Positions 6,498 through 60,997 of a stretch of 64,000 nt of DNA are shown here, piece after piece. Made by a program: the position numbers and the translations under genes. The notes under the pieces are model-generated. The model was not told where the DNA came from and did not search any database. It saw only the letters and a list, made by a program, of their open reading frames with translations. The DNA comes from Candidatus Yanofskybacteria bacterium (GTDB lineage: Bacteria; Patescibacteriota; Minisyncoccia; 2-02-FULL-40-12; IGHO2-01-FULL-4-A), in contig JACPNJ010000005.1 in the NCBI GenBank assembly GCA_016185545.1, positions 167,754 to 231,753 of the forward strand, in the 5' to 3' direction. Every line of letters starts with the position of its first letter. Within the stretch, counting starts at the first letter, position 1.

Positions 6498-6833
6498 TTA
6501 TGGGTTACCAAGTGCGTTCCAAAATTTTGCACTCATCTCTTTAGCACTAATTTTAGGATAAACCCCAATCCTGCCGTAATGGAGTATCAAAAAAGTACGA
6601 TCATCACAAGGAATTACTTTTAAATTTTCTGGTCGAACATCATTTTCATCTAAAAACCTCATTAGTCTATTACTTTTAACCCCCGAGGAATTCAGATCAT
6701 TGACATCCAAGAAAAAACCGTGCCACTTTATTTTTTTTCTATTTTTCTCTGCGACTTTTCCATTACCCAAACTTTTTTCTTTCATAGTTTGTTTCACTGT
6801 TTGTTTCACTTTTTCCTCTTTATTCAATTGCAA
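6498..6833 (-). CDS. hypothetical protein (TTG start)
   Basis: 111-aa ORF lying directly downstream (on the minus strand) of promoter-like repeat R1. Confidence 0.4.
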   Translation of the reverse strand: MQLNKEEKVKQTVKQTMKEKSLGNGKVAEKNRKKIKWHGFFLDVNDLNSSGVKSNRLMRFLDENDVRPENLKVIPCDDRTFLILHYGRIGVYPKISAKEMSAKFWNALGNP

Positions 6834-6917
6834 AAGACCAATCTGCCGGGGCTTTTATGGCTCCCCAGCATCATAAGTAGGTTAGCATACGAGCCTATGG
6901 CGTGTCAAGAGTAAAAG
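6818..6917 (-). promoter_or_regulatory. repeat R1 copy 1 (promoter-like cassette)
   Basis: ~95-bp sequence duplicated at 8404-8500; the minus strand carries TTGACA-N18-TAACCT. Confidence 0.5.
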
Positions 6918-7924: not shown

Positions 7925-7957
7925 AAAAAAACAAAACCGCCAAATGGCGGCAAATCA
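7925..7957 (-). terminator. repeat R2 copy 1 (rho-independent terminator)
   Basis: minus strand: ccgccatttggcgg hairpin followed by ttttgtttt. Confidence 0.6.
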
Positions 7958-8042
7958 GTTGGTTAGTAATTTTTGATAAAGTAGGCCCAAGCGAAGTCGT
8001 AAAGACACTCCATAATAAAAAACGAGGTGTTTCCTCGTTCAA

Positions 8043-8403: not shown

Positions 8404-8500
8404 TTTATTCAATTGAAAAAGATCAACCTGCCGGGGCTTTTATGGCTCCCCAGCATCATAAGTAGGTTAGCATACGAGCCTATGGCGTGTCAAGAGTAAA
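8404..8500 (-). promoter_or_regulatory. repeat R1 copy 2 (promoter-like cassette)
   Basis: near-identical to 6818-6917. Confidence 0.5.
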
Positions 8501-8529
8501 AAACAAAACCGCCAAATGGCGGCAAATCA
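8501..8529 (-). terminator. repeat R2 copy 2 (terminator; contiguous with R1 here)
   Basis: identical to 7925-7957; follows the stop of 8549..8863 on the minus strand. Confidence 0.6.
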
Positions 8530-8548
8530 TTTTTCTTTTCAAGATGAT

Positions 8549-14558: not shown

Positions 14559-15272
14559 ATGATAGATACAGCAATAATCTTAGCGGGTGGAAGAGGGCTA
14601 CGACTAATGCCCCAAACGGCCGAACAGCCAAAAGCTATGGTTAAAGTTTTGGGTCGCCCGATGATTGAATGGATAATACTTTGGCTTAAAAAAAATAAAA
14701 TAACGAACATAATCGTAAGTGTAGATTACAAAAAGGTAAAGTTGATGAAATATCTGGGAAATGGTAAAAAGTTTGGAGTAAATATATGCTATAACGACCA
14801 CGCGGGAGCGTCAGAAACAGGAGATGCATTTCGCAGTGTCTTTTTAAATATAAAATCTTTGCCAGATGTTTTTGTAGCGATGAATGGGGATCAAATTACA
14901 AATCTTCCAATCAAAAAACTTGTTGCCCACCACAAGAAACATGACCCGATAGCAACCATAGTGACCTGCCCTATAAAAAGTCCATACGGAATAGTCACTC
15001 ACAACAACCTTAATCACTTGGTCAAAGATTTCAAAGAAAAGCCTATTCTGCCGAATATTTACATGAATACCGGTATTTACATTTTCAACAAAAAAATCAT
15101 TAAGTATCTGCCGCAAAAAGGGTCAGTAGAGAGAACGACTTTCAAAAAATTAATCAGAGAACAAAAACTCAAAGCTTATATTCATAGGGGACTATTCGTC
15201 ACGATAAACGACAACAAAGACCTGCAAGATACTGAAAGTATTTTAACCAAATCAAAAATTAATTTTTTATGA
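14559..15272 (+). CDS. sugar-1-phosphate nucleotidyltransferase (GDP-heptose/mannose-1-P guanylyltransferase-like)
   Basis: N-terminal AIILAGGRGLRLMP nucleotidyltransferase motif. Confidence 0.7.
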   Translation: MIDTAIILAGGRGLRLMPQTAEQPKAMVKVLGRPMIEWIILWLKKNKITNIIVSVDYKKVKLMKYLGNGKKFGVNICYNDHAGASETGDAFRSVFLNIKSLPDVFVAMNGDQITNLPIKKLVAHHKKHDPIATIVTCPIKSPYGIVTHNNLNHLVKDFKEKPILPNIYMNTGIYIFNKKIIKYLPQKGSVERTTFKKLIREQKLKAYIHRGLFVTINDNKDLQDTESILTKSKINFL

Positions 15273-15274
15273 AT

Positions 15275-15381
15275 CCCGTTAGAAATTAATCCTAACGGGA
15301 ATAAAAGGTATTTTATTAATATAAGATTGTGAGCTTGCCACCTGTTTAAAGTGGTGGACAGTCCGCAAAACTTCTAACGGG
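15275..15381 (+). repeat. family A palindromic junction element, copy A1
   Basis: terminal inverted repeats cccgttagaa.../...acttctaacggg; inner stem ccacctgtttaaagtggtgg; sits between the TGA of the upstream gene and an ATG. Confidence 0.8.
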
Positions 15382-15669
15382 ATGAATCCCGTACGAACCA
15401 AAACGTTCTATTATGCATATGTAATACAAAGCAATAAAGATGGGCGTTTTTATACAGGTTTTACGGTGGATTTACGGAAGCGCCTTAAGGAGCATAATGA
15501 AAGTAAGTATATTTCTTGGACAAAAGGAAGGGGACCGTTTGACCTAATTTATTATGAAGCCTGCAAAAACAAAGAAGATGCCAGGCAAAGAGAAAAATAT
15601 CTTAAAACAGGACGAGGCAAGCGCTTTATTAAAGAAAGATTAAGGCGCTTCCTGGTTCGTACGGGATGA
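15382..15669 (+). CDS. GIY-YIG nuclease superfamily protein (YhbQ/COG2827-like, 95 aa)
   Basis: YYAYVIQSNKDGRFYTGFTVDLRKRLKEHN = GIY-YIG motif block; the ORF runs exactly between the 12-bp inverted repeats. Confidence 0.8.
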   Translation: MNPVRTKTFYYAYVIQSNKDGRFYTGFTVDLRKRLKEHNESKYISWTKGRGPFDLIYYEACKNKEDARQREKYLKTGRGKRFIKERLRRFLVRTG

Positions 15670-15671
15670 AA
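15382..15671 (+). mobile_element. inverted-repeat-bounded GIY-YIG unit flanked by ATGAA direct repeats
   Basis: ATGAAT-CCCGTACGAACC...GGTTCGTACGGG-ATGAAA; perfect 12-bp inverted repeat; 5-bp direct repeat. Confidence 0.65.
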
Positions 15672-16619
15672 GTATTAATAACCGGCATAACCGGATTTAT
15701 CGGAAGCGAACTTGCGCGCAAACTCTTAAAAGACGGGGACTTTGAAATCGCCGGTCTTTTGCGTACTTCTTCAAATCAGAAAAGAGTTGATGCTATAGAC
15801 GACATAATTAATAATATCAGGGTTTTTTATGCTAACTTCAATGACCACCATGCCATACGCAATGTAATAAAAACTTTCCGCCCTAATTATATACTTCACA
15901 TTGGCGCTCAAACTGCCGTGCGAGATTCTTTTGAAATGCCCCATGAGTTCAATGAAACAAACTATCTTGGCACCATCAATCTGATTCATGCGGCTCTTGA
16001 AGTGGCTGATTTTAAAAAATTTATATTCGCTTCCACGATGGAAGTCTACGGATTTCAGAAAGCTCGGAAGCCGTTTAGAGAAGATCTGCCGTTAAACCCG
16101 GGTAGTCCCTATGCTGCATCCAAGGCCGCCTGCGAACATTATCTGCGAATGGCTAATCAGGCTTTCGGCCTCCCCTATCTCATATCACGCGCCTGTAATA
16201 CGTATGGCAGAAAACATAACTCCGGATACATAGTTGAACATATCATTACATCCATGCTAGACCGAAAAAAGGTATACATAGGCACACCCAAAGCAGTACG
16301 CGATTTGATGCATGTAGATGACCATGTAAATGCCTACGTGACCCTGTTGAAATCTAATGTTGTTAATGAAACCTTTAACTTCGGCACCGGATCGGGCCTG
16401 ACCATGTTGGAGCTAGCCAACATTATCAAAAAAAGACTGGGTTACAAAGACAAAATAATCGCAAGATTTCCTTCGTGGTATCTTTTTCGTCCTTTGGCCG
16501 AGGAATATTTATCAATAGACAGTTTGAAAGCCAAAAAAATTCTTGGATGGGAACCGAGAATTTCTCTTGATAAGGGTCTGATTTCAACAATTGCATATTG
16601 GAAAAAGGTTAAAAAATAA
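15666..16619 (+). CDS. NAD-dependent sugar epimerase/dehydratase (extended SDR)
   Basis: ITGITGFIGSEL Rossmann motif; YAASK catalytic motif. Confidence 0.75.
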   Translation: MKVLITGITGFIGSELARKLLKDGDFEIAGLLRTSSNQKRVDAIDDIINNIRVFYANFNDHHAIRNVIKTFRPNYILHIGAQTAVRDSFEMPHEFNETNYLGTINLIHAALEVADFKKFIFASTMEVYGFQKARKPFREDLPLNPGSPYAASKAACEHYLRMANQAFGLPYLISRACNTYGRKHNSGYIVEHIITSMLDRKKVYIGTPKAVRDLMHVDDHVNAYVTLLKSNVVNETFNFGTGSGLTMLELANIIKKRLGYKDKIIARFPSWYLFRPLAEEYLSIDSLKAKKILGWEPRISLDKGLISTIAYWKKVKK

Positions 16620-18258: not shown

Positions 18259-18260
18259 AT

Positions 18261-18381
18261 CCCGTACGAGACACAATGAGTAAACACACAAAAATGGCCG
18301 GTGGCCGGAGTGTCTTTACTGGATAAAATGATAAACTAACTAGGCACGGTTGCGACAGAGTCGCAACCTGTCTCGTACGGG
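18261..18381 (+). repeat. family B palindromic junction element, copy B1
   Basis: terminal inverted repeats cccgtacgagaca.../...tgtctcgtacggg; internal ggttgcgacagagtcgcaacc hairpin; TGA-element-ATG placement. Confidence 0.8.
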
Positions 18382-19431
18382 ATGAAAATATGTTATCTAA
18401 ATATAACCAGGGAAATCCCCCAGCGGGATGTAGTTTATATAAACGGGTTAAAGGAAAATGGTGTTGAAGTAATAGAAATTTTAGATAATTCGCCAAAGTT
18501 AAAAAAATTCTGGCATATTTTTAAAAAACATCGCGCCTTAAACAACAACTACGACATTTTGTGGGTCGGATATTCTGCCCACATACTTGCGCCCTTCGCC
18601 CGTTTAATTTCCAGAAAAAAAATAGTTTTCAACGCACTCTGCTCATTGTACGAGGGACTGATTATATCGCGCAAACAAGCGCCACGGTTTTCACCAAAAG
18701 CTTTTTTGGTTTGGTTACAGGATTTTTTGTCATTTCATTGTTCCTCGTTAATACTTGTGGAAAGCGAGGAACAAAAAAAATTCCTTATCAAAAAGTTTTT
18801 TCTGAAAGAAAAAAAACTGCAAAAAGCTTGGACGGGAGTTAATGACAGGGACTTTTTTTATAATCCGGCAATCAAAAAATCGCCTGTCTTTTCTATAATT
18901 TTTCGCGGCGGATTTCTTCCCGAATCAGGAATTGAACACGTTGCTGAAGCCGCCTCACTTCTTCAAGATGAGAACATACGATTCAGAATTATAGGCACCG
19001 GTGTTATGGAAGATGCCCTAATCAACAAGCTCGCTACTTTTAATTCTAAAAATGTTGAATTTATTTCCGAAAAAATCAAAAGAGTCAGCCGCCCCGAACT
19101 TAACATTAAAATGCAGGAATGCCACATATCGTTAGGCCAGTTATCTGACCACGACCGCCTGAATAGAACCATTCCTCATAAGGCATTCGAGAGTATGGTT
19201 ATGAAAATTCCATATTTGACCGCGCGCAATAAAGCCGTACTGGAATTATTCGCCGAAAACGAAACTTGCTTTTGCTGTAACCCGGCTGACTCTCGTGATT
19301 TGGCCGATAAAATTATTTGGATAAAAAATAATTATGAAACGGCTCAAAAAATCGCCGAAAACGCTTATCAATTATACTCACGCGAACTAACCCCGAAAAT
19401 ACTTGCGAAAAAGGTATTAGAATTGTTTTGA
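18382..19431 (+). CDS. family 1 (GT4-like) glycosyltransferase
   Basis: GT-B C-terminal domain FISEKI...; 349 aa. Confidence 0.6.
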   Translation: MKICYLNITREIPQRDVVYINGLKENGVEVIEILDNSPKLKKFWHIFKKHRALNNNYDILWVGYSAHILAPFARLISRKKIVFNALCSLYEGLIISRKQAPRFSPKAFLVWLQDFLSFHCSSLILVESEEQKKFLIKKFFLKEKKLQKAWTGVNDRDFFYNPAIKKSPVFSIIFRGGFLPESGIEHVAEAASLLQDENIRFRIIGTGVMEDALINKLATFNSKNVEFISEKIKRVSRPELNIKMQECHISLGQLSDHDRLNRTIPHKAFESMVMKIPYLTARNKAVLELFAENETCFCCNPADSRDLADKIIWIKNNYETAQKIAENAYQLYSRELTPKILAKKVLELF

Positions 19432-21348: not shown

Positions 21349-22440
21349 TTACCCTTTTTTATTTAGATTACTTAATATAACATCAATTTCTTTTTTAGCC
21401 ATGTCAAGTGTTATATTTTTCACATCGCCATCGGTACCCTTGAGAACGCGATTAAGTGATCCTGGCGGGCGGTGATACTCTCGCTCATCGGTGGGCCCAA
21501 CTAAGACAAGGTTAGCCACATCAAAGGCATCAGCCGTTACCATTGGGCCGGAATCATTGCCTATGACAAGATCACACTTTGAAATCGCGGCCTTAAATTC
21601 ATCTAGGTTTTGATTAAGCAGGTTAACCGCCGGAACGCCGTCTAAAACCGCGAGCATTGCTGTTATCGGCCCCTCATCTTTACCGGCACCAACAAGCAAA
21701 ATCTTAGCGTTTTGTTCTTCGTAAAAAAATTTAGCTAATTCAGCAAATCTTTCCGCCGGCCACCAGCGCTCGGGCACCGCGCCACCCGGCGCAAAAGCAA
21801 CAATAAAATCGTCCACCGACATATTATTTTGAGTGAAAACATTGTTGATTTTATTTTCAGCTTCTTTGGAAAAATATAACCGGAAATGAGCATCGCCGGT
21901 ATTGGCATTAATTGGCTCCAGCAACTTAAGATATTGTGGCGGGACATATTGACCGGTATAAAACGGCGATGTGATTGCAAATGTTTTTAGAATTGAATAA
22001 GAAACCGAAGTATCTCCTTTGCCGCTCTCGAGTGAAAAAGTAGAAATGGTTTTAATGCCGGCAAGGTATAGCAGAGCAAAACCCATTGTACTGCCAAGAT
22101 TGGCCAAACAAGCAAAATCAATTTTTTCTTTTTTTAATAGTTTAACGACGGTCCAAAAGTTATTTTCGTAATTTATATATTTATCTATATCCGGGTTGTG
22201 TCTGATCACTTCTTCTACCCGACCAGCACCAATAACATATAGTCTGCTATCTGGATACCTGGTCTTAATGGCCCTGAACATGGGCGTGATATAAACAACA
22301 TCGCCCATGTGCGGTTTCCAGCGCAAGATAAGAATCCTTTTGGGGTTTGAGGTAATTTTTTTTGCTCTGCCGCGGAATAAATAATATAAAAGACACAATA
22401 ATAAACTGCCAAGATTTGTAAATTTACTGGATAATTTCAT
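21349..22440 (-). CDS. family 9 glycosyltransferase (ADP-heptose:acceptor heptosyltransferase-like)
   Basis: ILILRWKPHMGDVV and LVIGNDSGPMV GT9 motifs. Confidence 0.75.
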   Translation of the reverse strand: MKLSSKFTNLGSLLLCLLYYLFRGRAKKITSNPKRILILRWKPHMGDVVYITPMFRAIKTRYPDSRLYVIGAGRVEEVIRHNPDIDKYINYENNFWTVVKLLKKEKIDFACLANLGSTMGFALLYLAGIKTISTFSLESGKGDTSVSYSILKTFAITSPFYTGQYVPPQYLKLLEPINANTGDAHFRLYFSKEAENKINNVFTQNNMSVDDFIVAFAPGGAVPERWWPAERFAELAKFFYEEQNAKILLVGAGKDEGPITAMLAVLDGVPAVNLLNQNLDEFKAAISKCDLVIGNDSGPMVTADAFDVANLVLVGPTDEREYHRPPGSLNRVLKGTDGDVKNITLDMAKKEIDVILSNLNKKG

Positions 22441-22547
22441 CCCGTTAGAAGTTTTGCAAACCGGCCACCACTTTGAACAGGTGGCAAACTCACAAATTTT
22501 ATATCAATAAATGCCCTTTATTCCCGTTAGGATTAACTTCTAACGGG
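22441..22547 (-). repeat. family A element, copy A2
   Basis: near-identical reverse complement of A1. Confidence 0.8.
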
Positions 22548-22549
22548 AT

Positions 22550-23407
22550 TCATTTCCTTAAAGTTACGCAAGCCACTGCTCTGGCGGCGGCCACCCCGTC
22601 ATCGTTAATTTTTTTGCCGGTACGGATGTTAAAATATTCCAAACCATCGCATTGCTCCTGTTCACTTATCTGCCAACCATCTTTTGAGTACTTATAGAAA
22701 ACAGTATTAAATTCGGCGGCGCCGAAAGCATCGGCAACTTTTTGCACCATTTGTGAATTAAACTGCTGAAAAAAACCATGGTTTTCGTATCGGCCGAACG
22801 GTACGGTAATAAAAAGTGTTCCGCCCGGCTTCAACATTCTTTTCATTTCAAGAACCGCCGGCAGATAATCGCCGCTGTTTTCCTTGAACCGGTTTTCACC
22901 GGTATATATTTGCGTGTTATCCATTCCTATATGCTCAAGAGTGGAGACACAGGAAATTATATCAAAATTATCGCTTTTGAATGGTGCTTTTCTTATATCG
23001 CTATAAACATACGATACTCCTTTATTCCAAAAACAATTTGATTCCGGATTGAGATTCATTATAAAAAGATTCTTGGGGACAATATTTTTATGTTCAATAA
23101 TTTCCTTAAAATTAAGGGCCGAACCGGCATCCAACATTTCCACACGGTCACCACCGATTTGGGAAATAACCCATGGAATTTCAATGATTCTTTCATCAAT
23201 TCCAATGCCATATTTTTCGGGCAACTTCCCATTATTTTTAAACAGTCTCGATAGTTCATTATTTTTAAGAACTGCGCCAATTTCACGCCATTTATATTCA
23301 AAATAACCCCTGCTCCAAGGCTTGCGGCCGTGCAATTCGTAGGATAATAAATTTCTTCTAGCAATTAAACTTTTTGCAAAATATCTTAATTTTTTGTTAA
23401 ACCCCAT
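22550..23407 (-). CDS. SAM-dependent methyltransferase
   Basis: class I methyltransferase fold (LDAGSALNF...KPGGTLFITVP). Confidence 0.6.
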   Translation of the reverse strand: MGFNKKLRYFAKSLIARRNLLSYELHGRKPWSRGYFEYKWREIGAVLKNNELSRLFKNNGKLPEKYGIGIDERIIEIPWVISQIGGDRVEMLDAGSALNFKEIIEHKNIVPKNLFIMNLNPESNCFWNKGVSYVYSDIRKAPFKSDNFDIISCVSTLEHIGMDNTQIYTGENRFKENSGDYLPAVLEMKRMLKPGGTLFITVPFGRYENHGFFQQFNSQMVQKVADAFGAAEFNTVFYKYSKDGWQISEQEQCDGLEYFNIRTGKKINDDGVAAARAVACVTLRK

Positions 23408-23512
23408 CCCGTTAGAAGTTTTGCAGACCGTCCACCACTTTAAACAGGTGGCAAGTTCACAAGCCTTATATCAATAAATACTTTTTCCCCGTTAGGCTTA
23501 ACTTCTAACGGG
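23408..23512 (-). repeat. family A element, copy A3
   Basis: same termini and interior as A2. Confidence 0.8.
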
Positions 23513-23513
23513 A

Positions 23514-24725
23514 TTAAGCAATACAAATGAAAACTTTACTAAAAATCTCGTTAATCGGCTTCTGATATTTTATCACGAAAAGTTCGCCGTTGTCGTAAAT
23601 TTGGAACACGGTTTTATTGAGGCCCAAGAGCGGTTCCCAAATTTTATTATAAAACCAGCTTGCTTTGGTAAACCGGAAATCGTCATTGTTTGAATAAATC
23701 TGGTTTTCGGAATTGTAGTGGTAGTTGAAGTCCCTTTCGGTTATAAACCCGAGCTGCCTGTTACGCCGATGATATGACAGAAAACAATTTTCAAGAAAAT
23801 CCACTTGGGAAAAAGATATTATCATATCATCCGGATTGACATTCATTTTTTTAACGGCCAAAGCGATTTTGAAATTATTAAATAATTTGCGCGGTTCCAA
23901 TGAATAAAAGATTCTTGGAAAAAATTTAATCTCATCAAAGTACTCCCTTATATCGTCTGGTTTTACAAAATCCCAGCGAGGATGGCGGGAAACGACCAAG
24001 TTTATCTTGGTACTAGGCAAAAAAGACCTTATAAAACGCGCCAGGGATACCGCACTAACCACAAACTCCGTATGCGAAAGGACAAACCAAACTTTACCGT
24101 GAAAATCGGAAAATAGTTCGCGTATATTACGCTCAAAAAGTTCATCTTTTGCGGTGGCTATTCTATTTTCAACAAGCTCTTGTTTGAGGTCGGTTATAAA
24201 AAGTGAGCTTGGCACTTTTGCAAAATATGTTTCGGTAGTCTCAAAGTACTTGTCATTATAGACATTTTTAAAAAGCCGATAAAATAGGTAAGCATTCAGA
24301 CCGAAGCTATAGGCGGAAACCGCCGATGTTGAGTTCACGGCAAAAACACATTTAATTTTTGGAAGATTTTGCCACAAAAACAGTTCAGCCGTTGTTTTGT
24401 CTTGGATTAAATTAAAACCATTTAAGTTTAAAAATAATTGTTTTTTTTCATCAGATGGATGCGGTTTATAATAAAGATCGTACCCACCAAAATTCCGGCG
24501 AATATAATCAAGGCACTCGTTGCATTTAGCAACATAAAACTCCTTGTCTGCAAAACCTGAAGCCAGAATGCCTTTCATATCACTGCCCATAAAAACAACC
24601 ATTTTCGCGCTAAAACCGCTTTTAGAATCCGGTTCTTTTTTGTTTAAACTCAACAAATGAGGCAGTGAAATCCTGACGACATTATTTATTTTTTTATTTA
24701 TACCGACAAATTTTCTTATATCCAT
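23514..24725 (-). CDS. hypothetical GT-B-like transferase with a KPHP motif (paralog of 36483..37706)
   Basis: shares CLDYIR...YDLYYKPHP..FLNL with 36483..37706; HP motif as in CMP-sugar/CDP-alditol transferases. Confidence 0.45.
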   Translation of the reverse strand: MDIRKFVGINKKINNVVRISLPHLLSLNKKEPDSKSGFSAKMVVFMGSDMKGILASGFADKEFYVAKCNECLDYIRRNFGGYDLYYKPHPSDEKKQLFLNLNGFNLIQDKTTAELFLWQNLPKIKCVFAVNSTSAVSAYSFGLNAYLFYRLFKNVYNDKYFETTETYFAKVPSSLFITDLKQELVENRIATAKDELFERNIRELFSDFHGKVWFVLSHTEFVVSAVSLARFIRSFLPSTKINLVVSRHPRWDFVKPDDIREYFDEIKFFPRIFYSLEPRKLFNNFKIALAVKKMNVNPDDMIISFSQVDFLENCFLSYHRRNRQLGFITERDFNYHYNSENQIYSNNDDFRFTKASWFYNKIWEPLLGLNKTVFQIYDNGELFVIKYQKPINEIFSKVFICIA

Positions 24726-24845
24726 CCCGTATGAGACAGGCTGTGATTCTGTCGCAACCGTACCTAGTTAGTTTATCATTGTATCCCGTAAAGACACTTC
24801 GGCCACCAGACCTTCTTGTGTGTTTACCCTTCGTGTCTCGTACGG
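24726..24845 (-). repeat. family B element, copy B2
   Basis: cccgtatgagaca...tgtctcgtacgg; the interior matches the reverse complement of B1. Confidence 0.8.
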
Positions 24846-24871
24846 AATCCATGAGTAAATCTCCGAAAGCC

Positions 24872-26107
24872 CTATTTAGTTTTATAAGCAATGAAGTCTA
24901 CGTGACGAACACCGCATGCACCCTTGAAGAGGTGTTTACATGAATCAATATATGCCTTGACTTCATGTAGGTCTGAATTTTTAACCAAATATACAAATTG
25001 CTTCGCTTCTTTAATAAATTCTGATAACCGAGTTTGCAATGGCTCTAAAACCGATACTTCCTCAAAAGACATATCAACCGCATCAGCTAAATTATTAAAT
25101 TTATCCGCATTAAGTTGAGACTTGGAATTGAAATTTGCAACATAACTGGTCAAGTCTGATAATTCCTTTGAATATTTAAGATAGCCCCCGCCTAGCGCTT
25201 TAACATTTTCCAAATCACCATCTTTTTGTAACAGCCATACGGTTTCTGCAAGAGCAGGCATTCCCGGTATTTCGGCAACATCAAACTTTAACTTATGATG
25301 CACGGAATCTCCAATTACTGGCATTAAAAATGGCGGATAACTTGAATAAAGTTTCAAATTATTTTCTTTTAGCCATTTTAATGTCTCCGCTACGGAAGGA
25401 TCGTCTTGGCTTTGAATTACCCAACGGTCAAATATTATTGCTCTTCGGGTCCGTTTGATAGCCACCTGACTTCGGTCAATATCTTCCTTAAAAAGTTTTT
25501 CACATACATCCACCATATCATCCGGCGATTTGGCATAGTGATACACAGCAAAACGCTGAAGCATGTTTTGAAAACCACCTGCTTTATTAGGATCCCCAAA
25601 AATTAGAAAACCGCCCGGTTTAAGAAATTTGGCAATTTTCTTGAACGCTCCCCGGTTATCTGCAGTATGACTCAAAACTCCTCTACAATGGACGATATCG
25701 TACTTTACAGATGAATCATAATCAAAAATAGATGATTTGATAAACTTGTGCGTACCGCCATTAGAATAGCGCTTAAAAACTTTTTTTGCTATGGCAAGCG
25801 CTTGATCGTTCATCTCTACAAGCGTGCATTTGGCGCCCCATCGCGCTAAAGAAATCGTATTCTCTCCGGTACCAGCACCGAAGTCAATAAGATTGGCATT
25901 AGCAAACATTTTCGGCGGAAATTTAAACAAATCTCTATACATGTATAGCACATTAGCCGTATACTGACGGAATTCTTTTTCTGATTTATCAGAAAAATAA
26001 ATTGAGGGGATTTCCTCCTGAAATGTGCCGAGGGTAGCTTGTTCGACCCGCTTGATTTTAGCAAGTCTTATAGTTTTACTCTTGTGTTTAGTTGATATTT
26101 TTTTCAT
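24872..26107 (-). CDS. SAM-dependent methyltransferase
   Basis: LIDFGAGTGENTISLA motif I; 411 aa. Confidence 0.6.
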   Translation of the reverse strand: MKKISTKHKSKTIRLAKIKRVEQATLGTFQEEIPSIYFSDKSEKEFRQYTANVLYMYRDLFKFPPKMFANANLIDFGAGTGENTISLARWGAKCTLVEMNDQALAIAKKVFKRYSNGGTHKFIKSSIFDYDSSVKYDIVHCRGVLSHTADNRGAFKKIAKFLKPGGFLIFGDPNKAGGFQNMLQRFAVYHYAKSPDDMVDVCEKLFKEDIDRSQVAIKRTRRAIIFDRWVIQSQDDPSVAETLKWLKENNLKLYSSYPPFLMPVIGDSVHHKLKFDVAEIPGMPALAETVWLLQKDGDLENVKALGGGYLKYSKELSDLTSYVANFNSKSQLNADKFNNLADAVDMSFEEVSVLEPLQTRLSEFIKEAKQFVYLVKNSDLHEVKAYIDSCKHLFKGACGVRHVDFIAYKTK

Positions 26108-26213
26108 CCCGTTAGAAGTAGCAACAGCGACAAAAGTTTTAATTACGGCCGCAGTGTCTACTTGAAAAAAAATAACTTTAATTCGTGAACCCGCTAGGTC
26201 TACTTCTAACGGG
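26108..26213 (-). repeat. family A variant element, copy A4
   Basis: same 12-14-bp termini cccgttagaagtag/ctacttctaacggg; different interior. Confidence 0.7.
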
Positions 26214-26226
26214 ATACATTATTAAA

Positions 26227-27360
26227 TTAATCGCAGTAGCTTTCAAGCTTACTATCCCGAACCGTATCAAGAGTACTGCAATGAATACCACCCATAAAAT
26301 AAGAATGCCTGAATGATATCGGGATAGGAGTAATTCCGTGTTTCTCAAGTATTTTCATAAGAGGAATCTGAATTTTATCTACAATGACATGCCCGGGATC
26401 AATGGATAAAAAATTCATTCCAATCCAAGGAGAACTGATGGAGCCAAGGCCGGATTTAACTCCCAGCTTTTCAAGTTCCAGATGAGCCGGTTTTCTGACC
26501 TTTTCGTGAATATCCAAGGTCCTCTGTGGCGTCGGAACAATATCGGAAAAATATATCTTGTCCCATTTTTCAAAAACCGGCGGACAGGTCTCGGGACTGA
26601 CCCGTGTAGCATTCAGCATAACCAGACCCGGACGCAATGCCATGGCTGTTGAATCTATGTGGCTTGAGCGATAGATCTCGCTCGTAGTATGGACCCTATA
26701 TTCATCACCCAAAACACTCTGGAGCCATTTGGCGCCGATATTATTACCGGACCGAGAAACAAGATATAAAAGATCCTTGCCCATTCTTAAAGTATTAGCG
26801 GCTTCAAATAATATCTCATCTTCAGTCAGTCGTGTGTATTTTTGTCCGTCATCATATTGGGATTTACCCTCAACGGTATAAACTTCCATGTGGTCGCCTG
26901 GCACGCGCGGCTTAGGACCGGCTACCCACCTAAAACCGCCTTCTTTAAAATACTCGTACAAAACCGGATATAAACCCATGGCTTCAAAATACCTGTGCTG
27001 TTCCTGCGACGGTGATTCAATGACATTACCGCCGACCACTAAATGCAGATCCCTCATATTATAGACATGGTCACCGACTGCGGAGAAAAATGGTGTCGTA
27101 AATAATTTATTGTTATGGGAAATATCGGGACGAAACACTTTCACGCCAAACGATTTTAAAACATTACAAAGCCCCTCTAAATCTTCGTTAATTTCATCAG
27201 TAAGCCACTGGGGATAAGCCTGGCGGGCTAATTTAACTGATTTTTCTAAAAGATCTTCTGAAACTAAGCCATGTTTAAATACCAAGGGAGCATGGCCATC
27301 TCCCCGGCCAACAATTATTTCTCTCAATTTATCCCACTCATTGTGGCTGTTTATTTTCAT
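26227..27360 (-). CDS. amidinotransferase-family protein
   Basis: N-terminal INSHNEWDKLREIIVG (amidinotransferase signature) and C-terminal GGIHCST catalytic-Cys motif. Confidence 0.65.
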   Translation of the reverse strand: MKINSHNEWDKLREIIVGRGDGHAPLVFKHGLVSEDLLEKSVKLARQAYPQWLTDEINEDLEGLCNVLKSFGVKVFRPDISHNNKLFTTPFFSAVGDHVYNMRDLHLVVGGNVIESPSQEQHRYFEAMGLYPVLYEYFKEGGFRWVAGPKPRVPGDHMEVYTVEGKSQYDDGQKYTRLTEDEILFEAANTLRMGKDLLYLVSRSGNNIGAKWLQSVLGDEYRVHTTSEIYRSSHIDSTAMALRPGLVMLNATRVSPETCPPVFEKWDKIYFSDIVPTPQRTLDIHEKVRKPAHLELEKLGVKSGLGSISSPWIGMNFLSIDPGHVIVDKIQIPLMKILEKHGITPIPISFRHSYFMGGIHCSTLDTVRDSKLESYCD

Positions 27361-27483
27361 CCCGTTAGAGGCAGGTTACGCTCTTTGAGCGTAACCGTAC
27401 CCAAATAGTTTAAATGATAATTCCCGTTTGTATGTTTCTTGCACCGCTATTCTTGATTAATTGCCTGTTGTGCCTCTAACGGG
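27361..27483 (-). repeat. family A variant element, copy A5
   Basis: termini cccgttagaggc/gcctctaacggg; internal ggttacgctctttgagcgtaacc hairpin. Confidence 0.7.
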
Positions 27484-28584
27484 ACGAGTCATCATTCTCA
27501 TTATATTAGCATGGTCTTCTCTGGCAATCTCGTATTTGCTTTTATTCAACTGGCTTGGATCATCCCGTACGAGACAGGTTGCGACCCTGTCGCAACCGTG
27601 CCTAGTTAGTTTATCATTATCTCCAACAGGGACACTCCGACCACCGGCCTTTTTTGTGTGTTTATTCGTCGTGTCTCGTACGGGATCATCCCTAGGAAAC
27701 ATATTGGATTTAAAACCGCATTCAACGCCCAATTGACTTAAAATCTTAAGAGTACTGTCATTGTAAGAATTGGCAGGATGGGCCATGTCCACGGGCGGCC
27801 TGCCGCAAACTCTTTGTATGTGTTCATAATTTTTTTGATACTCTTCTTGCTGTCGTTCAAAAGGAAGTTCGGCAAGCATCATGGGGTGTGAATATGAATG
27901 CAGTCCGATTACATGGCCTTGCCTATTTAAGTAAGCAAGGTTTTCATTTGACATCCATATGTTTTTAGAAAGATCGGCCAAATTCAACCCTTGGTCTTGA
28001 ATAATCGCATCCATAATTATTTCAAATTCCTCACGGCTTAACACGCGATCCCTAATCAAACGAAAGCGCATGTCATTGGTTGAGTAAAACGGGAAAGTCT
28101 TGGAATACCTTACCATATCGGTCTCTTCTAAAACTTTCCTGGCATTATTTCCAAATTTTGATTGAAAAATTTTATCAAAAAAAATATTGTAAAAGTCATC
28201 AATATCTTTAAAAAACTTAGAGCGAAAAACCCGATAAATTTCAAATTTGCCAAGGCCGCCCTCAAATACACTGGAATAGACGAACCAAAATGCTTTTAGG
28301 TTGTACTTGTCCAAAACCGGCAAGACAACATCAAATTGACATAATAGCCCATCATCCAGGGTTATGCAAACATCCCGATTGGTTAATTGGTTCGCCCCCA
28401 ATCGCTTAAGCCATTCTTTAGGATCAAGTATCCGATCTAATCCTACAAACATAAGAATGGCTTCAAAATCCGACATTGATATCGAACCTTGCCCTTTGTA
28501 ATGTTTCCGTTCGTCATGAAAATGATGGAACATTATCCCGTGAGCAACCGAACTGAGATATTTTTTTTTAGATAATTCGCTCAA
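27457..28584 (-). CDS. polysaccharide deacetylase (NodB-homology domain); the 3' ~230 nt of the ORF reads through elements B3 and A5
   Basis: ITLDDG NodB motif and HSYSHP His motif; the frame stays open through the repeat elements, so the true C-terminus is uncertain. Confidence 0.6.
   Translation of the reverse strand: MSELSKKKYLSSVAHGIMFHHFHDERKHYKGQGSISMSDFEAILMFVGLDRILDPKEWLKRLGANQLTNRDVCITLDDGLLCQFDVVLPVLDKYNLKAFWFVYSSVFEGGLGKFEIYRVFRSKFFKDIDDFYNIFFDKIFQSKFGNNARKVLEETDMVRYSKTFPFYSTNDMRFRLIRDRVLSREEFEIIMDAIIQDQGLNLADLSKNIWMSNENLAYLNRQGHVIGLHSYSHPMMLAELPFERQQEEYQKNYEHIQRVCGRPPVDMAHPANSYNDSTLKILSQLGVECGFKSNMFPRDDPVRDTTNKHTKKAGGRSVPVGDNDKLTRHGCDRVATCLVRDDPSQLNKSKYEIAREDHANIMRMMTRPVRGTTGN
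27564..27684 (-). repeat. family B element, copy B3
   Basis: cccgtacgagaca...tgtctcgtacggg; in tandem with A5. Confidence 0.8.
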
Positions 28585-29725
28585 TTTTTTTAATATCTAA
28601 ATAATCCTCGGAAGAAAAACTTAAACCCGAGGTAATTTTTTGAAAGCCCTCGTAAAAACGCGGCTCACTGACAAGGTTATGAATATTGGCAGTTGGTACA
28701 AGAATCAACATTTCATTATTAACCCATGCTTCTTTATTGGAGTCGTTGGAACCCATAAGAGCTTCGTGCAGTTTGTCGCCGACACGATCTCCAATGTATT
28801 TTATTTTTATCACAGCCCCAGAAGACCGCTGCTTCAGTCGTGGATGATTGGGTCTTCTGGGGCTGGATTCCGCCCCACGGTCAAGCCGCCAAGCTTGACT
28901 GTGGGTGATGGTACCACGGGCTTGGCCGTGGGGCTCCATTTTTTTTCCAGAGTAATATTTTTTTATAAATATACTGGCTAGATCTCCCAAGCGGATTGAC
29001 GGCATTTTCAAAATAAAAATTTCACCGCCCGAACAAAGCTGGGCCGCTTTCAGAGTCAAACTAACGGCTTGTTTTATGGACATGAGAAAGCGGGTCGCGT
29101 CTTTGTTGGTAACATTAATCGCGCCGCTGGCTTCTACTTGTTTTACCCACATCGGCAGTACTGAACCATCGGCCCAGGCAACATTGCCGAATCTTACACA
29201 GGCAAGCTTCATTTTATCTCCCAGAAAAAAACTGGAATTTATAAAAAGCTTCTCCATCATAAGCTTGGAAGCGCCAAGCACATTTAAGGGGTTGGCAACT
29301 TTATCCGTGGAAATGGCAATAATTTTTTCAACACCGGCGTGCAAAGCCGCGTCAATAATATTATGTGAACCGACAATGTTAGTTTTCATCGCTTCTGACG
29401 GATTATACTCGCAAAACGGAACATGTTTTAAGGCGGCGGCGTGAAAAACTATGTCTACATTTTTAAAAGCAAGATGTAAACGCTCTTGGTCTCTTATGTC
29501 TCCAATCAACATCCTTAAGTTTTTTGGGTAACGAAGCGCCTCCAATAGGTGGTATTGGCGTGTTTCATTTCTGGATAAAACCCTGATCTGCTTCGGCTTG
29601 GACTTTAAAAGCTGGCGAACCAGTTCTGCGCCAATACTACCAGTGCCTCCAGTTACCAAAATGGTTTTATTTTGAAACTCGTTAATCATAGAAAACAACT
29701 TAAAAATGCAAACCTCAAATCTCAA
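28568..29725 (-). CDS. UDP-GlcNAc 4,6-dehydratase (PseB/FlaA1/CapD-like), with an in-frame 43-aa insertion
   Basis: ILVTGGTGSIG...VLSRNE...HAAALKHVP...YIGDRVGDKLHEAL; 385 aa versus ~335 for homologs. Confidence 0.75.
   Translation of the reverse strand: MRFEVCIFKLFSMINEFQNKTILVTGGTGSIGAELVRQLLKSKPKQIRVLSRNETRQYHLLEALRYPKNLRMLIGDIRDQERLHLAFKNVDIVFHAAALKHVPFCEYNPSEAMKTNIVGSHNIIDAALHAGVEKIIAISTDKVANPLNVLGASKLMMEKLFINSSFFLGDKMKLACVRFGNVAWADGSVLPMWVKQVEASGAINVTNKDATRFLMSIKQAVSLTLKAAQLCSGGEIFILKMPSIRLGDLASIFIKKYYSGKKMEPHGQARGTITHSQAWRLDRGAESSPRRPNHPRLKQRSSGAVIKIKYIGDRVGDKLHEALMGSNDSNKEAWVNNEMLILVPTANIHNLVSEPRFYEGFQKITSGLSFSSEDYLDIKKIERII
28811..28939 (-). repeat. GC-rich triple-hairpin element inserted in-frame in a coding sequence
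   Basis: 129 nt at ~62% GC versus ~40% background; stems gccccagaagacc/ggtcttctggggc, cccacggtcaagc/gcttgactgtggg, ccacgg/ccgtgg. Confidence 0.6.
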
Positions 29726-30150
29726 AATGTAATTTAAAATTCCAAACTATTTTCTGCCTTTCATGGTTAGTACGCCAGCGCCAATAATTTTAGAAATTTC
29801 TTCGGCTTCTTTAAGCAATGGGTTAATTTGATTTCTTAAATTAGGCGTACTTTCAATGAGCAAAATCAACCAATATTTTGTCTCATTAGAACTCTTAAGA
29901 GCAATCTGAAAAAATTTTAAATAATCCAATTTTGAGCTAGCGGCTCGAGCTTCGAAAACGTTGGCTCCAACTGAAGTTGCAGATCGAATCAGTTGATCGG
30001 CTATCGCCCACAAATTCCTACTTTTTCTTACTTCTCCACAAAGTTTAATTATTGCTAAAGAAAAATCAATAAGCCGTTTATTAAATTGCATTTTAAAATT
30101 TACATTTTCATTTTGCATTTTGAGATTTGAATTTTGAATTGGGTAATTTT
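29703..30150. mobile_element. inverted-repeat-bounded module carrying a four-helix-bundle (23S rRNA IVS-type) protein gene
   Basis: AT-rich inverted-repeat arms with core caaatctcaaaatg (29703-29746; 30092-30150, reverse complement) flank the ORF. Confidence 0.55.
29747..30118 (-). CDS. four-helix-bundle protein (23S rRNA intervening-sequence protein family)
   Basis: WAIADQLIRSATSVGANVFEA...YLKFFQIALKSSNETKYWL is characteristic; the first 9 codons lie in the inverted-repeat arm, so the probable start is MQFNK (~30091). Confidence 0.7.
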   Translation of the reverse strand: MQNENVNFKMQFNKRLIDFSLAIIKLCGEVRKSRNLWAIADQLIRSATSVGANVFEARAASSKLDYLKFFQIALKSSNETKYWLILLIESTPNLRNQINPLLKEAEEISKIIGAGVLTMKGRK

Positions 30151-35680: not shown

Positions 35681-35768
35681 AAATTCAAAAAGCAAATCTC
35701 AAATCTCAAAATCTAATTTATAATTAAAAACTTTCATTTTGGATTTTGAGATTGAAATTTTGAATTTT
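35681..35768. repeat. 'caaatctcaaaat' AT-rich palindromic hairpin (empty copy of the 4HB-module inverted repeat)
   Basis: gcaaatctcaaatctcaaaatc ... gattttgagattg. Confidence 0.65.
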
Positions 35769-37706: not shown

Positions 37707-37715
37707 GAGTAGAAT

Positions 37716-37800
37716 AATTTAAACCTCAAATCTCAAAACTCAAAATTTAAATTTTGAATTTTAAATTACATTTTGAGATTTGAGATTTGCATTTTGAATT
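37716..37800. repeat. 'caaatctcaaaat' AT-rich palindromic hairpin (second empty copy)
   Basis: aacctcaaatctcaaaactcaaaattt ... cattttgagatttgagatttgcatttt. Confidence 0.65.
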
Positions 37801-59291: not shown

Positions 59292-59296
59292 AGCCT

Positions 59297-59330
59297 AATT
59301 CAAAATGCAAACCTCAAATCTCAAAATTAC
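59297..59330. repeat. single arm of the 'caaatctcaaaat' repeat family
   Basis: caaaatgcaaacctcaaatctcaaaattacag. Confidence 0.5.
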
Positions 59331-60997
59331 AGACTTGCAGTTTTTCTGCAATCATAGATCCGAGCCGGAATTTTACCAGAATATTCCTCATAAACCTTTC
59401 TACATGACGAAAAATATTTTACATAAGGGCTGTCGGAATGCAAGCGAGGAATTTCAATTATTAAATAATGGCCTTTGAAATTTTTAAGAATATCGGTATA
59501 ACTTGACTCAAATTTCGGCGCGGCATAAAGTCGTCTTTGATATTTGTCTATTTTTAACAATTCGCGGTAGCCGATGTTGTTATAAGTGATTACTTTTTCT
59601 ATATCCGGATCGTTTTTTATAAAGTCAACGGCATTTTTTAATACTACAGTGGGGCTACCGTTGATCTTGCCAAATAGGTACTCTTCAACAAAAATACCGT
59701 TATAGAAAAATCCAAGAATTAGAATTATCGCTAAAAATGACTTTTGCCATTTTGTCTTTATAAACGACAAAATTACCAGAATTAACGCTATTAGCCAAGC
59801 CAATGCCATAAACAACCAGGAAACATAAAAACCCATCGGCCCCGAACCGCCGATGAACGGAAACAGGAAATTCCATTTTAAACTCAAAATTCGGTTAAAC
59901 CATTCTGTTTTGGGATATAGTGCTGGTACAAAATGAGGCAAAAACTGCAGGAAAAACAAAGCCAATCCGATAGCACAACCAAACACTATGACCCTCCACT
60001 TGTTATAGACGCTCTGCCCTTCAAAAATGTTGCTCACAACAACACCTGAAATAACAGACAAAGGCACAATCATGAATTGAAAATAACGATCCAGCGCGCC
60101 AGATGAAAAATCAAAAAGTACCAAATAAAAAATCAGGCCGAGGATAAGAAAAATTATAAAAAGACGCAATTTTCTCGCCAAATCTTTTGTTAAAAATAAA
60201 AGAGGCAATAAGAGAAGCGGCGAACTGTAAAGCAGGGCTTTGAAAAACTGAATTGAAATCTGGAGATAATTTCTGTCAGAAAAAACGACAAAATGCTTCC
60301 AATAAGAAAGTGGCCTTGAAATGTCGGCATTAGGCAAAATATGCATAATACCCAAAATCAATAAAAATAATGAGGCAAGTATGCCAATACCAATTGAGGC
60401 AAACTTAAACAATTTCCGACGGGATAACAGGTGTTTTTGCGAATACAAAAAATCCAAGGCAATGGCGCCAAGCGCTATAACAAAGCTAACTTTTGTTAAG
60501 GAACCGAGAAAAATAAAAACCGCCAAAACGCTCCCCAAAATCAGTTTTTTCTTTAAATTTATGCTTTCTCTCCATTTATAATAAAAAAGGGCTGAAAGTA
60601 AAAAAAAGAAGGGCAAAACCTGCCCATCGGTATCAATCATCAAAGAAGCCAAAACGCTAAAAAAACCGGCGCTAAAAAATAAAACGCTCCAAAGAGCGGC
60701 TTTTGTGGAAAACCTGCGTTTTACCAGAACAAAAAGAAGCCAAAAATTAGCAATGCCGAACAAAAACGGCAAATGGCGCAAATTATCTTCACCAAACGCC
60801 TTTACCGCCACAAAAAAAATTAAGGGGGTAAGCGGCGGATGAACAAACCCGCCTAAACCCCCTAATCCCGCACTGCCAAAGCCAGGCCAAACCCGTTCAT
60901 CCTGATGATATGGTAAGTCCAAACCTGGAATTCTTAAAATCAAAAACAAAATAAAAATTATAACCAGTATTGCACGCGTATTCATCTTTTGAAGCAT
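59327..60997 (-). CDS. GT-C fold membrane glycosyltransferase (ArnT/PMT, GT39/GT83-like)
   Basis: ~12 transmembrane segments; DE motif in the first loop (HQDERVWPG). Confidence 0.6.
   Translation of the reverse strand: MLQKMNTRAILVIIFILFLILRIPGLDLPYHQDERVWPGFGSAGLGGLGGFVHPPLTPLIFFVAVKAFGEDNLRHLPFLFGIANFWLLFVLVKRRFSTKAALWSVLFFSAGFFSVLASLMIDTDGQVLPFFFLLSALFYYKWRESINLKKKLILGSVLAVFIFLGSLTKVSFVIALGAIALDFLYSQKHLLSRRKLFKFASIGIGILASLFLLILGIMHILPNADISRPLSYWKHFVVFSDRNYLQISIQFFKALLYSSPLLLLPLLFLTKDLARKLRLFIIFLILGLIFYLVLFDFSSGALDRYFQFMIVPLSVISGVVVSNIFEGQSVYNKWRVIVFGCAIGLALFFLQFLPHFVPALYPKTEWFNRILSLKWNFLFPFIGGSGPMGFYVSWLFMALAWLIALILVILSFIKTKWQKSFLAIILILGFFYNGIFVEEYLFGKINGSPTVVLKNAVDFIKNDPDIEKVITYNNIGYRELLKIDKYQRRLYAAPKFESSYTDILKNFKGHYLIIEIPRLHSDSPYVKYFSSCRKVYEEYSGKIPARIYDCRKTASL

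Follow-up and report, generated by a model that had tools for sequence, protein, structure and literature searches.

Here we describe a compact genetic element in a 64,000-nt stretch of DNA from Candidatus Yanofskybacteria (hereafter the window), in which an open reading frame (ORF) for a small GIY-YIG nuclease is bounded by inverted repeats that are themselves part of the coding sequence. The feature occupies positions 15382-15671, between the genes for a sugar-nucleotide nucleotidyltransferase and an NAD-dependent epimerase/dehydratase, and nucleotides there have a double role, coding for protein and forming a 28-bp DNA stem. The locus reads ...cgggATGAAT-CCCGTACGAACCA...TGGTTCGTACGGG-ATGAAAgta, with ATGAA at 15382-15386 and again at 15666-15670, and the nuclease ORF is the only sizeable one in the stretch 15382-15671. 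A non-coding relative, designated A1, lies directly upstream. The boundaries of the ORF-bearing element were set by 4-nt repeats in its flanks, by a complementary outer base and by a comparison of an empty with a filled site at a homologous locus, L165. The features of the locus are as follows.

14559..15272, + strand: upstream host gene, sugar-nucleotide nucleotidyltransferase
15270..15273: TGAA copy 1, left flank of A1; includes the TGA stop of the nucleotidyltransferase gene
15383..15386: TGAA copy 2, serving A1 as right flank and the ORF element as left flank
15382..15669, + strand: GIY-YIG nuclease ORF, 95 aa, MNPVRT...LVRTG-stop
15387..15666, + strand: ORF-bearing element proper, T-CCCGT...ACGGG-A, 280 nt
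15386..15400: terminal inverted repeat, left arm ATCCCGTACGAACCA; codes N-P-V-R-T
15476..15488: inner stem, 5' strand GGAAGCGCCTTAA; inside R-K-R-L-K codons
15640..15652: inner stem, 3' strand TTAAGGCGCTTCC; contiguous with the right arm
15653..15667: terminal inverted repeat, right arm TGGTTCGTACGGGAT; codes (L)-V-R-T-G
15667..15670: TGAA copy 3, right flank of the ORF element; gives the GIY-YIG stop and the TG of the epimerase ATG
15666..16619, + strand: downstream host gene, NAD-dependent epimerase/dehydratase, 317 aa

The original prediction for this locus described a perfect 12-bp inverted repeat around the ORF; the repeat is indeed perfect (100% complementary), but its length is 15 nt, 15386-15400 against 15653-15667. 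The outermost pair of this repeat, A15386/T15667, belongs to the flanking TGAA copies, and the element proper begins at T15387. A second perfect inverted repeat, of 13 nt, lies within the ORF (15476-15488 versus 15640-15652), where it adjoins the right arm and pairs the codons R-K-R-L-K with the codons L-R-R-F-L. The outer 15 bp and the inner 13 bp together make up the 28-bp composite stem. When the unit was folded as a single strand and compared with shuffled sequences, the top strand gave a z-score of -4.8 and the bottom strand one of -4.3.

The codon positions bear out the proposal that the start and stop codons of the nuclease are supplied by the junctions of flank and element end. The A of the nuclease ATG is the last base of A1 and its TG comes from the duplicated TGAA, while the stop codon is the TGA at 15667-15669; the epimerase ATG at 15666-15668 is likewise composed of the terminal A of the ORF unit and a duplicated TG. 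With 4-nt duplications the locus parses as ...TTTTTTA [TGAA] T-A1-A [TGAA] T-ORF unit-A [TGAA] AGTATT... Removal of both elements and of two TGAA copies yields TTTTTTATGAAAGTATTAATAACC, in which ...I-N-F-L-stop overlaps M-K-V-L-I-T-G, and the insertion-free junction TTTTTTATGAAAGTA is a canonical ATGA overlap, in which the nucleotidyltransferase gene ends and the epimerase gene begins; the empty junction predicted without A1 and the ORF unit is TTTTTTATGAAAGTATTAATAAC. Because the ATGA overlap is restored when both elements are taken out, we read the locus as two serial insertions into one TGAA. A1 was inserted either before or after the ORF unit, both in a single ATGAAA stop/start overlap.

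The nuclease consists of one GIY-YIG domain (PF01541, residues 10-77, E 8.8e-17, 61.6 bits against a cut-off of 22.6), with no further Pfam domain in the 95-aa protein and an 88-aa core in many homologs. Its assignment to the YhbQ/COG2827 type was supported, UPF0213 being the best sequence match. An entry annotated as 'GIY-YIG nuclease family protein', encoded on a 339-kb contig of a Candidatus Yanofskybacteria metagenome-assembled genome, matches it at 100% identity. Relatives number at least 1,499 proteins at E <= 1e-5, and a scan of one genome per species gave at least 562 confirmed relatives, of which the best 80 loci were analysed. These 80 loci come from many lineages of the Candidate Phyla Radiation (CPR) and from metagenome-assembled genomes labelled Planctomycetota, Omnitrophota, Elusimicrobia and others, and homologs at 55-75% identity are spread over many phyla. 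Terminal inverted repeats with at least 11 matched positions were found in 75 of the 80 homologous loci, all in other genomes; unit length ranges over 274-292 nt, the termini are CCCGT...ACGGG, and the commonest core is CCCGTTAGAG, the window copy having CCCGTACGAACC.

An alignment of 36 homologs revealed invariant Y13, Y24, R32/R34 and E71, together with a conserved N-terminal MNPVR-x and a conserved C-terminal x-(L/R)-T-G. The suggested check on whether the MNPVR/VRTG ends are conserved found MNPVR and a final T-G kept in the 36 relatives, and terminal repeats in 75 loci. Column entropies at codon positions 1, 2 and 3 are 0.76, 0.60 and 1.40 bits, and, as judged from the alignment, the ORF is under purifying selection. 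The GIY-YIG gene is the sole ORF of the unit, and no transposase of the DDE, HUH, serine or tyrosine type was found in it. Neither a DNA-binding domain nor an intron was found, flanking genes vary by locus, and the group I intron endonuclease model of NCBIfam matched only weakly (25.9 bits against a cut-off of 56). A tblastn search detected no second GIY-YIG copy in the 64-kb window. Among viral contigs there were only six distant matches, one with an inverted repeat, and phages are not the main home of the family.

Two further sets of homologs may be recorded here. A 42-kb IMG/VR contig (L168) carries a 52%-identical homolog between CCCCGTAGGATTT and AAATCCAACGGGG, with a TTTAC left flank; the other five viral matches are distant GIY-YIG genes, and no recognisable CCCGT-type termini were seen in the flanks that were inspected by eye. 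The protein P0040, from a 684-kb contig, has an N-terminal extension, MNPVRSKNLLNSAGSPSVNRTSCG, ahead of a second MNPVR, and this extension resembles the in-frame translation of a 72-nt mini-element located ahead of the ORF unit.

Compensatory substitutions in the composite stem

Covariation was assessed in a DNA alignment of 75 elements against the 28-pair composite stem. Standard pairs occupy 94.9% of the cells, compared with 85.4% in shuffled alignments and 28-48% when the partner is slid by 1-3 columns. Double-sided changes were seen in 19 of the 28 pairs, against 10.6 in shuffles, and in 215 cells, against 49.5±10.7. The inner stem (helix 3 of the model) is itself 94.9% paired, with compensatory changes in 8 of its 13 pairs. 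Pairing in the element is kept by compensatory substitutions.

The covariation extends to sites at which the protein does not change. One synonymous pair of the inner stem is G-C in 35 sequences and A-T in 34, as exemplified by the codons AAG/CGC versus AAA/CGT at about 35:34, and another is C-G in 57 sequences and T-A in 15. Covariation can also be followed at the amino acid level: in the 36 relatives, residue 6 covaries with the fourth-last residue in the combinations T-V, A-A, N-F and D/E-S. The corresponding codon pairs, AC/GT, GC/GC, AA/TT and GA/TC, are those expected if the DNA arms must stay complementary. On the sense strand G-T and A-C mismatches are equally frequent, 24 each, which fits strict DNA complementarity better than an mRNA stem. 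A scan of the whole window at the Rfam gathering thresholds returned no family.

Duplicated flanks, dispersed copies and start codons

The most direct view of a displaced copy comes from an ENA metagenome contig, L084, which holds a 95.1%-identical unit with identical arms in entirely different flanks. Of 288 nt, 14 differ between the two copies; 9 of the codon changes are synonymous and 4 are non-synonymous. In L084 the flanks read TTTAAAT-ATGAAT|CCCGT...ACGGG|ATGAAATTTACC, so that ATGAA stands on both sides and the unit lies directly before the start of another gene. A second case is given by L165, in which a non-coding relative with a 66-nt core (606-683) sits inside a GIY-YIG ORF, as ACGGTGGAT|CCCGT...ACGGG|ATGGATTTACGG with the left junction GGTGGAT. 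All other, uninterrupted homologs have the empty site, GGTGGATTTACGG / ACGGTGGATTTACGG. The insertion adds 72 nt, keeps the frame by contributing 24 in-frame codons (DPVRGKSPLATADMPLANRTSNGM) and has TGGA(T) flanks; it is the only clean filled/empty comparison that we obtained.

At L165 the duplication is either 4 bp, TGGA, in which case the terminal pair is T...A, or 5 bp, TGGAT; the register first proposed does not fit. In 72 of 74 loci across the family, the bases that adjoin the core at the two ends can pair with each other, indicating that the outer T...A pair belongs to the inverted repeat. Taken together with the L165 register, this revises the proposed 5-bp duplication of ATGAA to a 4-bp duplication, TGAA at the present locus and TNNA in general. 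A 2-bp AT duplication was considered and ruled out by the empty site of L165 and by the same complementary base.

Flank repeats were then scored in the register [NNNN]N|CCCGT...ACGGG|N'[NNNN]. Perfect 4-nt repeats were present around 31 of the 74 ORF units and 14 of the 22 short elements, with 14 different tetranucleotides; all 45 begin with T, 38 end with A and 27 are TGAA. Where the right flank is not ATG, 7 of 29 loci have perfect repeats, against 0.9 by permutation (maximum 5 in 2,000). The short elements of this count are non-coding, 45-128 nt long and share the termini of the ORF unit; all 22 come from the 433 kb of sequence surrounding homologs, and the 324 kb of unrelated control loci contained none. 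The symmetric TNNA target suggests a 4-nt staggered break. The copies at unrelated loci, the nested insertion and the flank repeats uphold the view of a mobile unit bounded by inverted repeats. Furthermore, the 95%-identical copy, the nested insertion, the similar copies within the genome and the multi-phylum homologs indicate, at the level of sequence comparison, recent movement and horizontal spread.

The window itself contains eight non-coding relatives, which fall into two families, A and B.

15274..15382, + strand: A1, with CCCGTTAG termini; in tandem at the site of the ORF unit
18260..18382, + strand: B1, with CCCGTACGAGAC termini; TGAA/TGAA flanks, at an ATGA stop/start overlap
22440..22548, - strand: A2; TTCA/TTCA flanks (TGAA when read on the gene strand); bordered by the stop of 22550..23407 on one side and by the start of 21349..22440 on the other
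23407..23513, - strand: A3; adjoins the start codon of 22550..23407 at one end and, at the other, the TAA stop of 23514..24725
24725..24847, - strand: B3 (degenerate); TCCA/TCCA flanks (TGGA on the gene strand)
26107..26214, - strand: A4; adjoins the start codon of 24872..26107
27360..27484, - strand: A5, with a TTAG core and a B-like inner hairpin; adjoins the start codon of 26227..27360
27563..27685, - strand: B2

All nine elements, the ORF unit included, lie at 15.2-27.7 kb of the window, in a sugar-nucleotide/glycosyltransferase cluster. Copies of B are about 90% identical to one another and A1-A3 are closely similar within the genome. The non-coding copies fold at z-scores of -3.6 to -7.5, except the degenerate B3 at -1.8. 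Family A also has a natural mini-hairpin of 25 nt, TCCCGTTAGG-N8-CTAACGGGA, and the empty junction predicted without B1 is CAAAAACCAATGAAAATATGTTATC.

The link between the ORF unit and family B, which had been drawn from a shared core, was supported. With up to two mismatches, CCCGTACGAACC occurs 7 times in the window against 1.89 expected, a number that none of 100 shuffles reached, and its other matches are termini of family B. A match to CCCGTACG at 8682, within an unrelated minus-strand ORF, was dismissed as chance. Family B agrees with the ORF unit in 13 of 15 terminal nt, and the right ends match at 82% identity across 33 nt; in both, an inner hairpin stands directly beside the right arm. 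Given these shared termini, right end and two-tier stem layout, family B fits an internal deletion of the ORF unit. For family A a different partner is available: the same 339-kb contig encodes a second nuclease, P0021, which ends in ALTG, and in every ALTG locus fetched this ending is encoded by a CTCTAACGGG (family A-type) arm. From these matching cores we infer that P0021 is paired with family A, which would make two nuclease lineages with two repeat families.

Several observations were made in passing on the repeats of the window. In the minus-strand operon at 21349-28584, five consecutive junctions each have one A or B element before the start codon, and the ORF 27457..28584 crosses B2 and ends in A5, its last ~75 codons being element-derived. 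Two Logan contigs from the same population (L174 and L175) end ~55 nt upstream of the gene 18382..19431, within B1; contigs that end inside B1 imply that the repeats break assemblies of this genome. Unrelated to these families are a direct repeat of 98 nt at 97% identity (6819-6916 and 8404-8501, ~1.6 kb apart) and a 35-nt repeat, also at 97% (7926-7960 and 8498-8532, ~0.6 kb apart), both of which hold GC-rich hairpins such as CCGCCAAATGGCGG. An AT-rich family (AAATCTCAAAAT.. / ..ATTTTGAGATTT) occurs at 29697-29748, 35681-35766, 37715-37800 and 59296-59347, in inverted and direct orientation and in intergenic positions.

Placement relative to host genes follows a pattern. In the window a start codon adjoins eight of the nine elements, B2 being the exception (seven of eight among the non-coding ones). 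Across homologous loci, a stop codon follows straight after ...T-G in 53 of 74, ACGGG is followed by ATG in 45, and in 41 the right flank opens directly with the start codon (ATG or GTG) of a downstream ORF of 60 aa or more. Insertion into an ATGA overlap, as originally proposed, holds for the present locus, where removal restores the overlap, but not as a rule of the family: only 8 of 74 loci have a stop/start overlap with ORFs of at least 60 aa on both sides. The rule for the family is that the right end stands immediately before a start codon, stop/start overlaps being rarer.

A separate arrangement was noted in a lineage whose units end in C...G. Here no stop follows ...T-G, and the frame reads on into G|F-T-L-I-E and a hydrophobic helix, as at the N-terminus of a type IV pilin. 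At L033 (2995-3717) an N_methyl motif scoring 22.2 bits, above the Pfam cut-off, comes right after the GIY-YIG domain. At L062 (309-3717) three consecutive pilin-like genes each carry an in-frame unit, leader-G-F-T|P-L-E-T-T-M...GIY-YIG...L-T-G|F-T-L-I-E, and L026 (3022-3759) likewise has an in-frame GIY-YIG unit at the prepilin-peptidase site of a pilin-like gene. In L062 the terminal G of the element completes the Gly codon of that site. To go by these reading frames, prepilin peptidase could free the mature pilin from a nuclease 'leader'.

Interpretation of the nuclease cassette

A family of proteins with a comparable association has been characterised experimentally. The Ssn proteins, ~94-aa single-domain GIY-YIG proteins of CDD cd10448, bind a hairpin repeat (NTS/SRM) only as single-stranded DNA (ssDNA) and cut a few nt upstream of it (Chenal et al. 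2025, Nat Commun 16:2388, PMC11893778). SsnA showed no RNA binding; NTS copies are clustered around surface genes, and Neisseria SsnA/NTS has been proposed to modulate transformation and recombination (PMC11893778).

On our analysis, the 280-bp cassette is probably an autonomous, nuclease-driven member of a large family centred on CPR/Patescibacteria, and we infer that the nuclease itself would mobilise the ORF unit or family B. Whenever the element becomes single-stranded, during replication, transformation or repair, its arms would pair, and the nuclease would bind the stem and, like Ssn beside NTS, cleave within the 4-nt flank at the foot of the stem. Such a cut would set the ORF unit in motion or start its copying, and would do the same in trans for the non-coding A and B elements; host ligation and repair would finish excision, copying or insertion. 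Insertions would survive where they are harmless, as where the terminal A restores an ATG, and ATGA overlaps would chain the nuclease ORF into the translational coupling of the operon.

A number of points weigh against this interpretation. GIY-YIG enzymes hydrolyse DNA and are not, to our knowledge, known for strand transfer, and the activity of this nuclease on the stem is a prediction. A 4-bp duplication is the classic signature of a DDE transposase, none of which is encoded in the unit; a trans-acting transposase elsewhere in the genome is possible. By sequence comparison the protein is nearer to UPF0213 than to bona fide Ssn, and its clade probably falls outside cd10448; the published SRM pattern (HGTCWYN0-2YYVSBRHN0-5WNVSBRGN0-2RNCYNB) has no match in the window. 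About 40% of the ORF-bearing loci are without a clean flank repeat. All nine window elements have the same orientation relative to the downstream gene, which a symmetric TNNA target leaves unexplained. At the locus itself, A1 now parts the nuclease ATG from the upstream stop, so that 5' translational coupling is broken. Finally, the search for an empty ATGA site at the orthologous junction, which had been suggested as a check, found none for this locus, and look-ups with the exact proteins of the epimerase and of the B1- and A2-adjacent genes gave no empty or polymorphic site for any window element. Those look-ups returned the same population with identical insertions, contigs ending at the repeat, or nothing, and a metagenome scan with the epimerase gave no ortholog above 40% identity.

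A further step, which we put forward tentatively, is that the cassette is the smallest autonomous mobile element of bacteria, 280 bp whose sole product, a nuclease of 88-95 aa, would be the hairpin-guided mobiliser of the unit and of its many non-coding derivatives, and whose ends would have evolved to repair the host gene that they interrupt. In the T...A-ended lineage, start codons would be rebuilt from the terminal A and the duplicated TG; in the C...G-ended lineage, it would be the Gly codon of the prepilin-peptidase site, with the nuclease becoming a cleavable type IV pilin 'leader'. If this is true, it would constitute a new mechanistic class of transposition, through a hydrolytic nuclease, and would answer whether Ssn-hairpin units are mobile.

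The alternative that stands up best, though we regard it as unlikely, is that the nuclease is a passenger. The ORF unit and the A and B elements would then all be non-autonomous and moved in trans by a conventional transposase, for instance of the DDE type, that acts on the CCCGT termini, and the nuclease would be cargo with some other function, for example addiction or the restriction of incoming ssDNA. This account draws on features that are typical of cut-and-paste transposons, namely the TNNA 4-bp duplication and the terminal repeats, on a unit that is without a strand-transfer enzyme, and on the predominance of short elements over ORF units in the window, 8 to 1. It does not lead one to expect cargo whose codons embed both arms and inner stem and co-evolve with them, in 75 of 80 homologs and in many phyla. 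In the 433 kb of homologous loci and in the window, moreover, no pair of termini encloses an ORF of transposase size, and the long-range pairs found are arms of separate elements. The asymmetric position of the inner stem is easier to reconcile with a folded strand than with a pair of symmetric sites for protein binding, and the related Ssn enzymes have as their substrates the hairpins on either side of their own genes (PMC11893778).

Still less probable, in our estimation, is a domesticated system, in which the nuclease and the dispersed hairpins are a host device that modulates transformation or recombination at surface-structure loci and no longer moves. The confinement of all nine elements to the sugar-nucleotide/glycosyltransferase cluster is in line with such a role, as are the relatives in pilin operons, which parallel NTS near surface genes. 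A system that has ceased to move is difficult to reconcile with a 95%-identical copy at an unrelated locus in another sample, with an insertion nested inside another copy, with the close similarity of the B copies (~90%) and of A1-A3, or with homologs at 55-75% identity in many phyla. The domesticated and the mobile role are not mutually exclusive.

An explanation at the RNA level appears very improbable. It would have an mRNA stem bring the upstream stop and the downstream start together, in a shunt-like coupling, or serve as a processing site. At three ATGA junctions (the sites at 15270, 18256 and 22550) a stop does lie just 5' and a start just 3' of the stem, and all window elements are co-oriented with the genes. 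The mismatches show no G-U-compatible excess over A-C (24 versus 24), no Rfam family matched, SsnA does not bind RNA (PMC11893778), and a process at the DNA level is required to explain the duplicated flanks, the nested insertion and the dispersed copies; an RNA effect could be a secondary consequence. As for a homing endonuclease of the classical free-standing kind, or an ordinary gene that lies between repeats by chance, the commonness of GIY-YIG domains in homing endonucleases and the weak intron-endonuclease match do little to lift a probability that we place close to nil, since there is neither a DNA-binding domain nor an intron and the insertion contexts are many, with no single conserved long target, while chance is refuted by the terminal repeats in 75 of 80 loci and by covariation over 75 loci.

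Should the nuclease-driven interpretation be correct, the family would represent a parasite hidden in compact CPR operons, which rebuilds the start codon of its host gene and joins the ATGA coupling. The system has the marks of a transposon and is simple and unusually economical, one 95-aa protein and 280 bp of DNA, and its enzymes may add specificities to the Ssn toolbox for cutting ssDNA. There are also practical consequences, in that the repeats break short-read CPR assemblies and give rise to spurious N-terminal extensions and gene fusions in annotation. The mobility of hairpin-framed small GIY-YIG genes was left open in the Ssn paper, and this family supplies genetic signatures that bear on it: flank duplications, a nested insertion with its empty site, and near-identical copies at unrelated loci.

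Relation to known hairpin-associated systems

A search of the literature available to us for an earlier description of these CPR elements found none. GIY-YIG homing endonucleases such as I-TevI and Seg share with them the catalytic domain and selfish behaviour. They differ in that they carry a distinct DNA-binding domain, recognise a single long site within a conserved gene, spread by recombinational repair and lack both terminal inverted repeats and target duplication.

Among bacterial MITEs, the Correia/NEMIS elements of Neisseria and the Rickettsia palindromic elements are similar in form, being inverted-repeat units of 70-150 bp at gene junctions or in frame within ORFs, co-transcribed with host genes, for which a mobilising enzyme is unknown or absent. 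Correia elements make a TA duplication and have no ORF-bearing partner, whereas the present family has a TNNA target and a coding partner with the same termini. Closer in organisation are REP/BIME with RAYT and the IS200/IS605 'peel-and-paste' elements, where a small nuclease gene likewise lies between hairpin repeats, many non-coding copies exist and hairpins are recognised as ssDNA. Their enzymes are HUH Y1 transposases, which work through covalent intermediates and without target duplication, in contrast to a hydrolytic GIY-YIG protein and a 4-bp duplication here.

Within the GIY-YIG superfamily, the UPF0213/COG2827 proteins (YhbQ, YazA, BH0048) are likewise small, single-domain and related to Slx1. 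With hhalign, the UPF0213 protein BH0048 scored 98.7% at 43% identity and the Ssn-type protein 97.3% at 34% identity; among structures, PDB 1zg2 (BH0048) matched at E 3.7e-12 and 1ywl at E 4.4e-6. We know of no repeat family for UPF0213. The Bacillaceae yazA gene, unlike the CPR units, is syntenic, between trmNF and rsmI, and lacks the CPR-type terminal repeat; only a 9-nt repeat was seen, in one species. Two yazA loci (L176:386-685 and L177:383-658) were observed to overlap trmNF and rsmI at start and stop, with an ATGA-type overlap in Radiobacillus, which may reflect an old fixed insertion that has lost its repeats, or coincidence.

The comparison with Ssn was made through a stand-in for SsnA, the SRM-flanked homolog of a Shinella plasmid. 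Plasmids of Shinella and Neorhizobium have a 94-aa GIY-YIG gene between inverted CGTCATCCTCGGGCTTGACCCGAGGATCCAT hairpins, and the published pattern matches on both sides. The window protein aligns with the Shinella protein without gaps over 65 residues at 35% identity, placing Y13/Y24/E71 on Y6/Y17/E64; in SsnA, mutation of the catalytic Tyr/Tyr/Glu residues abolishes cleavage (PMC11893778). Repeats stand on both sides of the gene in 42% of Ssn homologs and hundreds of copies are dispersed; the authors likened NTS-ssnA-NTS to an insertion sequence and hypothesised mobility, without demonstrating it, and CPR bacteria are not mentioned (PMC11893778).

Both systems thus have a small single-domain GIY-YIG gene flanked by its own inverted hairpin repeats, and the same repeat dispersed in the genome near surface-structure genes, as eight non-coding elements in the window. 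The (T)TCAT-CCCG... layout seen here resembles the GTCAT-TCCCG of NTS. The differences lie in the architecture. An Ssn gene has two complete small hairpins beside it, whereas here one long hairpin is split around the ORF, with arms that form part of the coding sequence and an additional stem within it. The present family is further set apart by its duplicated flanks, by the insertion nested in another copy and by its exact placement at start codons. On the sequence comparisons made here, the CPR clade is a relative of Ssn that follows the same logic, a small nuclease with its own hairpin, in a different architecture.

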